Source of the DNA: Candidatus Multivorans sp.
GTDB taxonomy: Bacteria; Acidobacteriota; Thermoanaerobaculia; Multivoradales; Multivoraceae
Length of the DNA stretch: 64,000 bases
Assembly: GCA_965247095.1 (NCBI GenBank)
Contig: OZ251997.1
Location: 2,368,001 to 2,432,000, forward strand
Reading direction: 5' to 3'
The translations under genes were made by a program, and so were the position numbers. The notes below the pieces were generated by a model that saw nothing but the letters and a program-made list of their open reading frames with translations, did not search any database and was not told the DNA's origin. Below are positions 8,245 to 19,905 of this stretch, piece after piece. Numbering within the stretch: the stretch's first letter is position 1; every line of letters begins with the position of its first letter.

Positions 8245-8327
8245 CAGACAGCCAGGTCTCCTGACTCACCTTCCTCCTACTCGCCGGCCCTTCCCATCCC
8301 TGTTCGGGACAGTGGTTAACGCCGGTT
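8245..8327 (-). promoter_or_regulatory. Cobalamin riboswitch, 3' half only
   Basis: Minus strand reads AACCGGCGTTAA-CCACTG-TCCCGAACAGGGAT-GGGAAG-GGCCGGCGAGTAGGAGGAAGGT-GAGTCAGGAGACCTGGC, which includes the B12 box. The 5' motifs are absent here. Confidence 0.9.
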
Positions 8328-9047
8328 ATCCAGCTTCACGCCAACCGGCTTCCGCAACAGCAACCGGGTCCAGGTGTCGAGATCGGCCGTCATCGGTCGG
8401 GCCAGGGCGTAGCTAAAACGGGCGAGATCGAGCACGTCAGCGCGGACTGTCGGATGCTCGATCTCAGCGGCGGCCGCGAGCAGCGGATCGAAGTCGGTGC
8501 CGGCCAAGGTGCGGGGGCCGACCAGGGCCAGCTGTTCGCTGCGGCGGTACACCTTCCGCGGCCGCAAGTGTCGAGACGCGGCGGGTATGCCGTCCACGCT
8601 GACGGCCTCAACCTCGATCGGCGTCAGCAGGGCGGTCGCCGCGGCCGGTTGCCGGGTGAAGCTCTGATCGACGACCGAGATACGCGCTCGCTTTGGCGGC
8701 TGCGGGGTCCGGTGGGCCTTCTTTGCCGGCTCTGGCTTCGCCTTGTCGCGCCTGTCTCGTGATCGGGGCTGTCGAGGGGTCTGGGGTCGTTTTCGGGCCG
8801 ATCGGCGCTTCCTGGGCCTCTCAGGGCCTCGTTGTGCAGCCGGCTCGCGGGCGTCCAGGGCCAGGGCGACCTCGAACTCGAGACCCGCCGCGGCCAGTAC
8901 TTCGCCGGCGACGGCCGCGGCGCGAGCGTTCGGCGCGACGATGCGCCCGTCTCGATGCCAGCCCCGCACTAGCCGTGCTTCCTCGGGAGTAACCTGCCCG
9001 GCCTCGACTGCGCTCTCGAGTCCGGCGGAGAGTGCGGCCTTCATCAC
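8316..9047 (-). CDS. N-terminal part of a split putative replication protein
   Basis: Translationally coupled to the par genes. Stops a few codons past the left junction. In frame with 19827-19168 when the element is circularised. Rep function is inferred from position. Confidence 0.65.
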   Translation of the reverse strand: MMKAALSAGLESAVEAGQVTPEEARLVRGWHRDGRIVAPNARAAAVAGEVLAAAGLEFEVALALDAREPAAQRGPERPRKRRSARKRPQTPRQPRSRDRRDKAKPEPAKKAHRTPQPPKRARISVVDQSFTRQPAAATALLTPIEVEAVSVDGIPAASRHLRPRKVYRRSEQLALVGPRTLAGTDFDPLLAAAAEIEHPTVRADVLDLARFSYALARPMTADLDTWTRLLLRKPVGVKLDNRR

Positions 9048-9274
9048 TGGGGCAGATACCGCTCGATCATCACGGTTGCCGCCTCTCGGCCCAGTTCATC
9101 CAGGTTGAGACCGGCCAGCGCCGCGGCCGCCTTCAGGCGGCGCGCCGTCATCTCGTCGTGGTAACTGACCCACGCGACCCTGCCTTCACGGGAGGCCGGT
9201 GGCTTCGGCTTCTTCGTCCTCGCGCTCCCCGCCTGCATGGCGGCCGCGTATGGTGACGATCCGGTCTTCTTCAT
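9044..9274 (-). CDS. Small ParG-like / RHH partition partner
   Basis: 76 aa, MKKTGSSPYAAAMQAG...RLKAAAALAGLNLDELGREA. ATGA overlap with parA; GGAGG RBS. Confidence 0.6.
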   Translation of the reverse strand: MKKTGSSPYAAAMQAGSARTKKPKPPASREGRVAWVSYHDEMTARRLKAAAALAGLNLDELGREAATVMIERYLPQ

Positions 9275-9890
9275 TTCGCCCTCCTGATGATCCAGCTGTA
9301 GAAGTCGGCGATCTCGCCCGCCGCCTTGGAAGTCGGTTCGAGTTCTTGCGCGCTCCTGCCGAGCACGAACGCTTTGGCGTGAGCGACCCGTTGACCGATG
9401 ACCACCGGGCAGACTTCGGCCCCGAAGTCGCGCACCGCATCCCGGGCATCGGTGATCCACGAGCCACGGGCGGGCGCCTGGTTCACCACCACGATCGCTC
9501 GAGCGCCGGCAGCGGCGACCACCTCGAGAGTCGCCGGCAACGCCGCCAGGTCCGGCGCCGCAGGTCGGCAGGGGACGATCACCACGTCAGCAAGGCCCGC
9601 CGCCGCGACTGCGCCGGCCTTTTCTCTGGGCGCCGTGTCGATCACGACCAGCGTCGCGCCCGCGTCGTGAGCATCCTCGACTACCCGCCGCAGCCTGGGC
9701 GGATGGGCAGAGACGACCTCTGGGGGATCACCGCCGCGAAGGCGGCCCCAAACCGACGCGGTTCCCTGCGGATCGGTATCGACGACTGTGGACTGACCAC
9801 CGGCCAGGTCGTTGGCGACGGCCAGGGCAACCGCGAGGGTCGACTTCCCAACGCCCCCTTCTGAGCTAAAAGCGCAAGCACGGTGAACAT
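9271..9890 (-). pseudogene. parA: Type Ib ParA ATPase with a 1-bp frameshift in Walker A
   Basis: Adding one G to the G5 run (9854-9858) gives QKGGVGKSTLA..VDTDPQG..VIDTAP. May be a real lesion or a homopolymer sequencing error. Confidence 0.85.
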
Positions 9891-10050
9891 TGATGGCGAT
9901 GGGAGCACATGCAGAACTAACGATGAGATTCGATGGCCGCGCTAGTCTTCAGCTCATGACACACACAGGACTCGGACCACATGTCGGCTCTGCTGAACTG
10001 CTTGGACGATTGGAGTCGCGCACGGCTCGCGGGCTAAAAAAGGGGCGGTG

Positions 10051-10197
10051 GTGAGTTTTCTCGACAGGTTCGACCTCGACCTCATCCTCAACATTGCCGC
10101 CGGGATAATCACCGCCGGCGTCGTAGCCGGCGTCGTACTGACCGTGCTCTCCGTCGTGATGGCGACGCTCCGCGTCGTACTGACCGCGCTCTTCTGA
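10051..10197 (+). CDS. Small hydrophobic peptide (48 aa)
   Basis: VSFLDRFDLDLILNIAAGIITAGVVAGVVLTVLSVVMATLRVVLTALF, preceded by AAAGGGG. Below the ORF-track size cutoff. Confidence 0.45.
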   Translation: MSFLDRFDLDLILNIAAGIITAGVVAGVVLTVLSVVMATLRVVLTALF

Positions 10198-10206
10198 CCG
10201 TCCGGT

Positions 10207-18143: not shown

Positions 18144-18340
18144 CGTCTTGGTCCTCCCCTGCTAACTCCGGTCGGCTTCCGGCTCGGGCCTGTCGTTCCA
18201 GGTTCGGTCTTGGAGAGCTTCGCAAGGCGGGGGCGGTCGCTGTTGGCGACGATCTCGGCGGCCTCACGCTCGATCTCGGCGATTTCCTTCGGGGTGTAAA
18301 AGCTCCTCAGGATGTCGTCCAACGGAACGGGCTCGGTCAT
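18140..18340 (-). CDS. Mini-ORF 2, HigA-N-terminus-like, no HTH
   Basis: MTEPVPLDDILRSFYTPKEIAEIEREAAEIVA; same RBS; ATGA coupling. Confidence 0.7.
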   Translation of the reverse strand: MTEPVPLDDILRSFYTPKEIAEIEREAAEIVANSDRPRLAKLSKTEPGTTGPSRKPTGVSRGGPRR

Positions 18341-18528
18341 CGTGTCGGTCCTCCCCTGCGACTCCCGGTCGGTTTCCGGCTCGGGCCTGACGGTGCAGGT
18401 TCGGTCTTCGCGAGTTCGCGTTGGCGCCGGATCTCAGCGAGCGTCTTGGCGTTGTCGGCCTTGATGCGGGCGCGAGTCTCGGGCGGCAGGGTCTTGATGA
18501 GGTCCTCCCACGGATAGTGTCCAGTCAT
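18337..18528 (-). CDS. Mini-ORF 1, HigA-N-terminus-like, no HTH
   Basis: MTGHYPWEDLIKTLPPETRARIKADNAKTLAEI; RBS context AGGGGAGGACTCACACGATG. Confidence 0.7.
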   Translation of the reverse strand: MTGHYPWEDLIKTLPPETRARIKADNAKTLAEIRRQRELAKTEPAPSGPSRKPTGSRRGGPTR

Positions 18529-19029
18529 CGTGTGAGTCCTCCCCTGCCTGCGACGAAGCCTATCGCTACGGCAGCCGAGCGGGAGCAGCAAGCAGGTCGA
18601 GGTACGCGACTGACCTGGACATAGGGGAACGCCCACCTGGAGACAACGCAGTCCACAGGGTTTCGGGCCTCGATTCCGTCTAGGTCAGTAGGGAGGGCGG
18701 CCGCGGCGGTCCCCTTGCTCCTGAGACGGGCGCACACAGCGCCGCCCGGTCGCTCTCCCGGTGGAGCGTCTGAACGACGGAATTGAGGGCCCTCCGGCCA
18801 CTTTTCGCGCCTGGCTAGCAACTTCCCCCAGGGGGGAAATGGGTCGATTGCCCCCCTTCACGAGGCCCCGGCGGCCCGCGCAGGAGTCTTACCGCCGCGT
18901 GTCCCTCTGTTCCGGTCGCCGTAGCCAGCCTCCGGATCCGCGGATTCTCCGCGGCGCGCAGCGCCGCCGCGTCTGTGGTCGTCCAAGCGTGGCGTACCGG
19001 GTCTGGCTCTTGAAGGATCAGAACGCGAA

Positions 19030-19160
19030 CGGCCCCCCCTTGGGGGGGCTTAGGGGGGTTCTGGATCTAATGGATCTAATGCTGACCGCGAAGATGTAGG
19101 CGGGACAAGGGTTTCCGGGGTTTAGCGTGACGCGAACCCGCCGTAGCGTGACGCGCACGG
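19030..19160. other. Candidate plasmid replication origin
   Basis: Non-coding, just downstream of the rep-like gene. TAGCGTGACGCG twice, 21 bp apart (19123, 19144); TGGATCTAA twice; C7-TT-G7 palindrome. Confidence 0.5.
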
Positions 19161-19167
19161 GAGGCGG

Positions 19168-19827
19168 TCAGTCGTCCAGCAGCGTCCGGATCAAGTGCCA
19201 CTTGTAGGCCCCGGATTCGTTCTGCTCGACGCGCCGGGTCGCCTCGACGTAGCGCGCACTGGCACGCACGACGAAGACGGCTTCACCCGTCTTCCCCGGC
19301 CGCAGGATGCGCTCGACGAGCTCCACGGTGTCGCCGGCTTCGGCTTCGCCGCGGCCGGCGGCGAGATAGCCGTGCTTGACCAGGTGCTCGAACAGTCGGC
19401 CCAGGCGCTTCCGGTCCCGGTCGGTGAGCGGACCCTCCGGCACGTCGTCGCCGGCCATGCGGAGCACGTCGGCGCCGGCGATGCGCACCTCTTGACCTGG
19501 GCCGGTCTTCCCCGTCGCGGGCTGTAGGAGTTCGGGGGTCCAGCCGCCTTTTCCGGGCGACCACGCCAGACGTGCCTCGATGCCGTCGAGGGCGCGGCGG
19601 GCGCGGGTGTCCCGGGCACTGCGGAGGTCCTGGCGGAACAGGCCGCCGGTGAGTCTCCAGGCTCGCGGCCCTTCTCGCCGCGCCCAGGTCGGCGGGCCAA
19701 GGGTCCAAAGCTCCGGTGTGGGCACGTCAACGAACGCGAGCGGTCGCCAGTCTGTGGGCGTGAGTCGAACACCGAGGCCATAGAGGACCGACAAAGGATC
19801 GACCGCGCGAGCTTGATCGAAACGGTT
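19168..19827 (-). CDS. C-terminal part of the split putative replication protein
   Basis: The apparent start at 19869 lies inside the riboswitch half. The frame (AAC CGT TTC, NRF) continues exactly from ...KLD at 8328. Confidence 0.65.
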   Translation of the reverse strand, partial: NRFDQARAVDPLSVLYGLGVRLTPTDWRPLAFVDVPTPELWTLGPPTWARREGPRAWRLTGGLFRQDLRSARDTRARRALDGIEARLAWSPGKGGWTPELLQPATGKTGPGQEVRIAGADVLRMAGDDVPEGPLTDRDRKRLGRLFEHLVKHGYLAAGRGEAEAGDTVELVERILRPGKTGEAVFVVRASARYVEATRRVEQNESGAYKWHLIRTLLDD

Positions 19828-19905
19828 TTCGTCTTGGATCACAGTCGCGGGGCGGTGGGAGATTCGCACTCCCTTCCCTTGAACTGCCTGCGTTCTGATG
19901 TGTGC
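19823..19905 (-). promoter_or_regulatory. Cobalamin riboswitch, 5' half only
   Basis: Minus strand reads GAACGCAGGCAGTTC-AAGGGAA-GGGAGTGCGAATCTCCC-ACCG-CCCCGCGACTGTGA-TCCAAGACGAAAACCG. Confidence 0.9.

Follow-up and report, generated by a model that had tools for sequence, protein, structure and literature searches.

Two halves of a cobalamin riboswitch parted by a plasmid-like mobilizable element with a split Rep-like gene at its ends

In the 64,000-nucleotide stretch of Candidatus Multivorans sp. DNA analysed here (the window, G000:C1:2368001-2432000, from the one-contig, 4.62-Mb genome G000), the two halves of one cobalamin riboswitch are parted by an insert of 11,500 bp. The gene content of the insert is that of a plasmid-like mobilizable element, and the open reading frames (ORFs) found at its two ends are halves of one gene resembling those of plasmid replication initiators (Rep-like gene). 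The event that we consider probable, with some room for other explanations, is a single illegitimate crossover by which a circular mobilizable plasmid of ca. 11.5 kb entered the chromosome at a microhomology, splitting its own rep gene, with the riboswitch as a target that was not specific in the manner of an attachment (att) site. The coordinates of the main features are collected in Table 1.

A search of the native window with the Rfam Cobalamin model (RF00174), which had been proposed in an earlier reading of this stretch based on its letters (the sequence-only reading), rendered only one marginal match, at 19631-19906 of the minus strand, with 33.0 bits versus a gathering score of 31.5. 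This match consists of a good 5' part followed by a gap of 144 nt and then by a poor, makeshift 3' partner. When the region 8150-8420 was searched alone, a partial match to model positions 47-167 was obtained (25.4 bits, E 7.6e-05), containing CCACUG, GGGAAGG and the B12-box-like GAGUCAGGAGAC. The conserved core motifs are distributed between the two places, the 5' half aligning to AGGGAA...GUGC-AAUC...CCCGC-ACUGU and the 3' half to CCACUG, GGGAAGG and GAG-CAGGAGAC. In a search of the whole genome the halves failed as a contiguous aptamer and appeared as two sub-threshold pieces of 29 and 25.4 bits.

The uninterrupted state of the locus was judged from natural empty sites, for which the orthologous loci were fetched from 20 genomes of the same genus. 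A full-length RF00174 match (73-91.1 bits) is present at all 20 loci, none of which is interrupted, so that the empty site whose existence in related genomes the sequence-only reading had wished to see checked is found in every one of them. The closest empty site is locus L013 of genome G016, with a riboswitch of 91 bits. Comparison by blastn of L013 with the window matched L013 1-1505 to window 21326-19823 (95.4% identity) and L013 1501-1842 to window 8327-7987 (89.5%), the two matches overlapping by exactly 5 bases. Moreover, the 5' half in the window is identical to positions 1-80 of the G016 riboswitch (80/80), and the 3' half to its positions 76-160 (85/85). Because the L013 matches share 5 bases and both halves are identical to the G016 riboswitch, the borders of the insert can be placed exactly at 8328-19827, and the pentamer AACCG, as written on the strand of the riboswitch, is found at both junctions. 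The sequence-only reading had put the two halves on the minus strand at these places, and had held that removal of 8328-19827 leaves a continuous riboswitch; both claims are upheld by the model searches and by the G016 empty site. A divergent recC gene lies upstream of the riboswitch, which in G016 is located in the 5' leader of a B12-related gene encoding a 633-aa TonB-dependent receptor with Plug and beta-barrel domains.

Eighteen ORFs of the element were scanned against protein families (Pfam, NCBIfam, PHROG), PADLOC also being used. Among them are genes for a relaxase, a ParA-type partition ATPase and a tyrosine recombinase, a content that bears out the integrated plasmid of 11.5 kb announced by the sequence-only reading. 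In a comparison of the relaxase with a plasmid collection, 3161 of 3301 matching records were typed as mobilizable, the best match having 46% identity over residues 160-495. Several ORFs, among them the two in the stretch of lowest GC, have no match in these scans. The 18 ORFs gave no family of type IV secretion systems (T4SS) or of coupling proteins; a relaxase domain is present, and mating-pore families are absent from those ORFs, as is the case in mobilizable plasmids. Judged from these genes, the insert is a plasmid-like mobilizable element. As a whole it has no copy in 41 other genomes of the genus, which carry modules only, and no megablast match in the plasmid collection. Within the genus the relaxase module recurs at 72-77% nucleotide identity and the recombinase module at 76-84%, including chromosomal copies in G016 and G050 that are 80-82% identical to that of the element, while the module formed by parA and a 138-aa ORF recurs at 80% on a 71-kb contig of G015.

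The central observation on how the element came to its present place was made at its ends. The left-end ORF (8316-9047, minus strand) and the right-end ORF (19168-19827) share one reading phase. With its 219 aa, the right-end piece matched three proteins of 580-592 aa with 53-65% identity, two of which cover 99-100% of it, and the left-end piece aligns to residues 29-88 and 248-366 of P0001, the best of these three matches of the right-end piece. A profile built from 60 members of the family matches G000 in two abutting pieces, positions 11-252 at the left end and 254-473 at the right end. Because the left piece ends at residue 366 of P0001 and the right piece starts at residue 373, and because the profile pieces abut, the two ORFs are halves of one gene, and this tiling points to a parent molecule that was circular and that recombined inside that gene. 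The break falls at about residue 372, inside the initiator-like region and within the least conserved linker of the gene. Several short matches of the family start near residue 370, and a recurrent split at that point was considered; it was rejected, since short database fragments, whether from close homologs (P0012, P0017) or from remoter ones (P0112 and others), are continuous across the junction position, which also supports the view that the two ORFs are halves of one gene.

Neither half of the gene has a Pfam, NCBIfam or PHROG match, and no Pfam family is shared by the 60 family members scanned, one of which has DnaA_N. The predicted fold of the conserved 300-residue region of the family is a tandem winged-helix fold that matches nearly the whole chains of RepE (F plasmid), pi (R6K) and RctB (Vibrio chromosome 2), and it suggests a Rep function for the split gene. 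The family, which comprises 189 representative clusters and has no Pfam model, would then be an undescribed initiator-like family with a RepE/pi/RctB-like fold. The gene follows parA and the small ORF and has short direct repeats alongside, so that both its predicted fold and its surroundings are like those of the three initiators; it is unlike them in belonging to none of their sequence families, in having an extra N-terminal region and in the number of copies, only two, of each repeat. These pairs of short repeats are all that the region 19039-19158 offers as an iteron array, and they could possibly be iterons or mark an origin. As regards distribution, a tblastn search of the plasmid collection with P0001 rendered no match, the C-terminal half was found in 0/41 genomes of the genus, and among 299 other genomes of the order the family profile gave no convincing match, only two weak partial ones (E ~1e-6). 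From a scan of genome contigs just one Rep homolog emerged; it lies on a contig of 4.8 kb in a metagenome-assembled genome of Gemmatimonadetes, and its context is uninformative. A chimeric ORF (19168-19869, minus strand) has its GTG start inside the riboswitch 5' half and runs in frame into the C-terminal half of the Rep-like gene; the riboswitch promoter may transcribe a truncated initiator fragment through it.

In the reading that we favour, a circular mobilizable plasmid of ca. 11.5 kb, bearing the Rep-like initiator with its repeats, ParA with the small ORF, the relaxase, the recombinase, the AbiEii-type gene, the ankyrin-repeat protein and two further ORFs, would have undergone one reciprocal crossover with the chromosome, guided by the 5-bp identity AACCG. 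On the plasmid side the exchange would have taken place in the middle of the initiator-like gene, and on the chromosome side within the one cobalamin riboswitch of the genome, close to model position 90, with a btuB-type TonB-dependent receptor gene downstream. Both targets would thus have been split, the riboswitch halves coming to lie 11.5 kb apart and the rep halves at the ends of the insert. The receptor gene would have lost its promoter together with the 5' half of its sensor, and the integrated plasmid would probably have been unable to replicate autonomously and have been carried passively, the frameshift of parA described below arising later. That the target was not restored, and that the receptor was cut off from promoter and sensor, had been said in the sequence-only reading and agrees with the present layout. 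Its proposal that the riboswitch served as attB finds no support if attB is taken to mean a site-specific target. Outside AACCG the 30-nt flanks of the two partners show 10/30 and 5/30 identities, and the pentamer itself occurs 25 times in the element alone. Because the crossover lies in the plasmid's own gene, the arms are unrelated and no same event was found in the other genomes searched, we infer an illegitimate crossover rather than the use of a dedicated attB.

Several observations weigh against this reading and lend themselves to another one, namely that the tyrosine recombinase of the element carried out the integration, using attP or a pseudo-site within rep and the riboswitch as a secondary or low-specificity target. 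The recombinase gene appears to be full-length; close relatives of it reside in the chromosomes of G016, in an island of ca. 20 kb, and of G050, which makes recombinase-mediated integration possible; the junction has a short shared core and shows perfect reciprocity, which would also result from a site-specific enzyme; and an imperfect inverted repeat of 8 nt (7/8) with a 10-nt spacer could be read by eye around the element-side site, a weak feature expected by chance, in our rough estimate, about once in ten sites. The core, however, is of only 5 bp with unrelated arms, and the site, ca. 1.9 kb from int, is within a protein-coding gene, in the linker where conservation is lowest. The 18-nt half-sites have no match with up to 3 mismatches in the Int-bearing loci of relatives, no tRNA gene was found near related recombinases in four 20-kb loci, nor any other classical target, and no second insertion at the riboswitch was seen in the 20 loci examined. 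The G016 recombinase island, the one related island whose borders could be roughly placed, is located at an unrelated intergenic site and its right side is interrupted by an insertion sequence (IS); no att could be derived from it. On balance, integration by the recombinase appears unlikely, although it is the most probable of the alternatives.

It could also be imagined that the splitting of rep is programmed, the family keeping a recombination site in the linker of the initiator, with integration stopping replication and excision restoring it, in analogy to the splitting of the SSV1 integrase gene (see below). In that case the recombinase would tolerate targets of very short identity such as a structured RNA leader, and the element would be a hybrid of the replicative and integrative types that carries its own switch. 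We regard this whole proposal as very improbable. Still less credible is transposition, with AACCG as a target-site duplication and the insert as a transposon: repeats of 5 bp do flank the insert, and target repeats of this length are typical of several transposon families, but the scanned ORFs gave no transposase family, terminal inverted repeats were not reported, and the end ORFs tile one conserved gene, as would ensue from a circular parent recombining inside a gene and not from transposon ends, so that this explanation is largely refuted.

Equally hard to credit is an assembly artefact in which a plasmid was wrongly joined into the chromosome, since it would need two reciprocal, base-exact misjoins at a 5-bp identity. 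Logan contigs were available from three public runs, all of one sample that is possibly the source of the G000 assembly; no RNA run was listed. Contigs of the three runs bridge the element/3'-half junction (records from 7300/7500 to 8800/8990) and the 5'-half/element junction (records from 19129/19188 to 20027/20300) with 0-2 differing letters, none of which is listed at a junction, and they also bridge both deletions of the receptor gene and the G-run of parA dealt with below. Bridging in three runs argues against misassembly; every run found comes from the same sample, and the runs are therefore no independent confirmation of one another. In favour of an artefact it can be said that the sample seems mixed, with many partly matching contigs and a raised depth over the relaxase gene. 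Neither an empty-site joint (8327 to 19828) nor the exact circle junction is listed in the contigs, which drop rare variants and are uninformative on excision.

Two further features of these contigs concern the composition of the sample. In contigs whose low depth (4.4 in run X1 and 2.9 in run X2) reaches roughly one tenth of the main depth, position 19653 is joined back to 8879 with 17 other letters between them. This joint presents the rep halves in circle-like order with ca. 725 bp around the junction missing, and it could represent a rearranged or excised derivative of the element or a related plasmid in the sample. In addition, over 15546-16413, part of the relaxase gene, each of the three runs shows a summed contig depth roughly threefold that of adjacent bins, together with alternative letters, so that the same sample appears to contain related relaxase genes from other replicons or organisms.

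Within the Walker A codons of parA, a -1 frameshift is located in a G-run (9854-9858). It puts the N-terminal MFTVLALLAQKG in one frame and GGVGKSTLAV... in the next; in the G015:C4 homolog, MKSVIALLAQKGGVGKSSLAV is read without a change of frame. Because the contigs of three runs cover the G-run without an indel, the frameshift is probably a real lesion and not a homopolymer error. The plasmid appears to have lost its maintenance functions, rep being split and parA broken.

Table 1. Features of the riboswitch locus and of the inserted element (positions in the window)
Feature	Position	Strand	Remarks
btuB-type TonB-dependent receptor remnant	7451-8168	-	ca. residues 1-67, 265-349 and 523-632 of 632, in three frames
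Cobalamin riboswitch, 3' half	8243-8327	-	CCACUG, GGGAAGG, B12-box-like GAGUCAGGAGACCUG
AACCG, element/3'-half junction	8323-8327	-	copy of the 5-bp crossover identity
Inserted element	8328-19827	.	11,500 bp including one copy of the 5-bp repeat; from blastn against the G016 empty site
Rep-like gene, N-terminal half	8328-9047	-	ORF continues for 4 chromosomal codons to a stop at 8316
ORF of 138 aa between parA and Rep-like gene	9044-9460	-	no family found; homolog with 75% identity next to parA on 71-kb G015 contig
parA-type partition ATPase, frameshifted	9271-9890	-	NF041546 ParA_partition, E 2.5e-44, 151 bits, below curated 180
Tyrosine recombinase, 341 aa	10207-11232	-	PF00589, E 8.5e-15; phrog_1 integrase
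Ankyrin-repeat protein	11190-12131	-	gene of 102-nt tandem units
Two ORFs, 263 and 384 aa	12520-14462	-	no family found; lowest GC of the element, 0.60-0.62
MobA/MbeA-type relaxase	14450-16315	-	PF03432, 33.6 bits vs cut-off 24.6; NF047848 MbeA, E 2.9e-33, below curated cut-off
AbiEii-type nucleotidyltransferase toxin ORF	16321-17010	+	PF08843, E 1e-12; weak PADLOC AbiEii match
ORF of 217 aa, no assigned function	17015-17668		after the AbiEii-type ORF
Short direct repeats, just 3' of Rep-like gene	19039-19158	.	15-nt unit x2 (21-bp spacing), 9-nt unit x2, 10-nt unit x2
Rep-like gene, C-terminal half	19168-19827	-	65% identical to P0001 residues 373-588
AACCG, 5'-half/element junction	19823-19827	-	copy of the 5-bp crossover identity
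Cobalamin riboswitch, 5' half	19823-19906	-	ca. model positions 1-90; promoter side towards divergent recC

Some of the remaining genes of the element have features of their own. The ankyrin gene contains, at 11133-12044 (minus strand), about seven tandem units of 102 nt that are 82-86% identical to one another, and it matches the PADLOC candidate model PDC-M72A (E 8.6e-30); the two low-GC ORFs at 12520-14462 have no PADLOC match. Between the repeat region and the AbiEii module, at 18000-18530 (minus strand), there are three small paralogous ORFs of ca. 60 codons each, spaced by ca. 197 bp as direct repeats D1-D3, each of them behind a GGGGAGGAC-like ribosome-binding site. Far from the insert, the window has a strong match to the DUF3800-VI RNA motif (RF02915, 63.5 bits, E 4.2e-11) at 50754-50804 (minus strand). 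Beyond the window, at G000:C1:1342814-1342989, 176 bp remain of a gene for a recombinase related to that of the element; at this locus G050 has a full-length copy.

Illegitimate integration of plasmids at short homologies is known, for instance in the pE194 integrants of Bacillus subtilis. The present case is like those in the single reciprocal crossover of a circle at a few bases, which can lie anywhere including plasmid genes, and in that neither the target nor the plasmid gene is restored; it is unlike them in coming from a natural genome and not from laboratory selection, in having a riboswitch as its target, and in the location of the plasmid site in a rep-like gene. Integration of SSV1 (Sulfolobus) takes place at an attP inside its own integrase gene, which is split by a programmed, recurrent and tRNA-targeted process. 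Here too a gene of the integrating element itself is divided between the two ends, with the difference that the gene is rep-like and that no recurrence was found. Of the features of site-specific integrative elements, a recombinase is present (PF00589, E 8.5e-15), but the exchange point lies inside the Rep-like ORF and not in a dedicated non-coding or int-adjacent attP, and only 5 bp are shared, so that the insert is not counted among such elements. Integrative mobilizable elements (IMEs), integrative and conjugative elements (ICEs) and their actinomycete counterparts (AICEs), their integration at secondary sites included, are similar to our element in combining a tyrosine recombinase with a relaxase in a chromosomal insert bounded by a short direct repeat, and differ from it in that the exchange is here inside a replication gene, at a 5-bp identity, with single use among the genomes searched and destruction of the target. 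Phrase matching of an open-access subset of the literature rendered no report of a riboswitch into which a mobile element had integrated, which is weak evidence of absence.

The riboswitch is not a recurrent integration site among the genomes searched. The insert is present at 0/20 of the orthologous loci examined, and 36 of 41 other genomes of the genus have an intact riboswitch; the search for other elements at the same position that the sequence-only reading had recommended was thus fruitless. The five genomes with no riboswitch match (G049, G053, G055, G052 and G043) are of different kinds. In G049, the one of the five whose riboswitch region could be aligned, a 316-bp deletion, not an insert, takes the whole riboswitch, and the receptor gene has an internal gap of ca. 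349 bp (L059, G049:C1:2309500-2314500), which makes this sister species a second, independent case of clean multi-deletion decay at the receptor locus. No receptor ortholog was found at E<=1e-20 in G053 and G055. In G052 the receptor is 70% identical, the recC flank is in place and the intergenic region is of similar length (L060, G052:C1:2455200-2457000), with no Cobalamin match at E<=0.01, so that the leader may have diverged or been replaced. The contig of G043 ends just upstream of the receptor gene and is uninformative on the riboswitch. A MetH match is present in all five, with a short open frame in G053 (212 aa) and in G043 (417 aa). The locus has thus been lost repeatedly, either the riboswitch or the receptor having been independently lost in other species of the genus. 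A further observation concerns G016, where the IS-like segments L050:6593-8571 and L054:1840-3065 are 98.7-99.2% identical to 6 and 5 copies in G000, respectively, far above the 87-95% of the surrounding chromosome in the comparison of G016 with G000; this suggests a recent IS exchange between the two species.

The btuB-like gene that the sequence-only reading had recognized downstream of the riboswitch is indeed of the receptor type, but what is left of it is a remnant. With respect to G016 it has deletions of 613 bp and 568 bp, with junctions 7990/7989 and 7734/7733, at which no evident microhomology is seen in a comparison with a genome that is only ca. 90% identical there. Both gaps recur in comparisons with G024 and G014, and all the relatives listed gave separated pieces. 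An ORF with a complete Plug and a 22-strand barrel is lacking in the window, the missing DNA is not found elsewhere in G000, and the next-best receptor of G000 is only 27% identical. Because of the two internal deletions, the receptor is a pseudogene for reasons independent of the insertion, and the three lesions may have arisen in any order.

Besides the two sub-threshold halves there is no other RF00174 match in G000, and each of five relatives has exactly one match over the cut-off, at the receptor locus. An intact MetH ORF, 1181 codons long between its stops, is present in G000 together with three methylmalonyl-CoA-mutase-like genes; in G000 and the five relatives neither MetE (PF01717) nor CobS (PF02654) was found. 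With MetH kept and MetE and CobS not detected, loss of the receptor would look costly. The receptor is nevertheless dispensable in some lineages, be it through another uptake route or through selection against it, and a role as a phage or bacteriocin receptor would provide a reason for repeated selection of the latter kind. G000 adds a further case to these losses, one whose history can be read with unusual clarity.

Taken as a whole, the insertion looks like a one-off accident at a B12-receptor locus that is in decay in any case, and it is a new instance of known processes. Riboswitches are not thereby established as attachment sites of a new class. The analysis has also brought to light, as a side find, the initiator-like protein family to which the split gene belongs. 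What the locus provides is a clean natural case of a chromosome capturing a plasmid by way of a few bases of identity, in which both partners are visibly broken and the empty sites of sister species document the integration event exactly. The bacterium itself keeps MetH and methylmalonyl-CoA-mutase-like genes, and yet neither its one cobalamin riboswitch nor the receptor gene downstream of it has survived intact.

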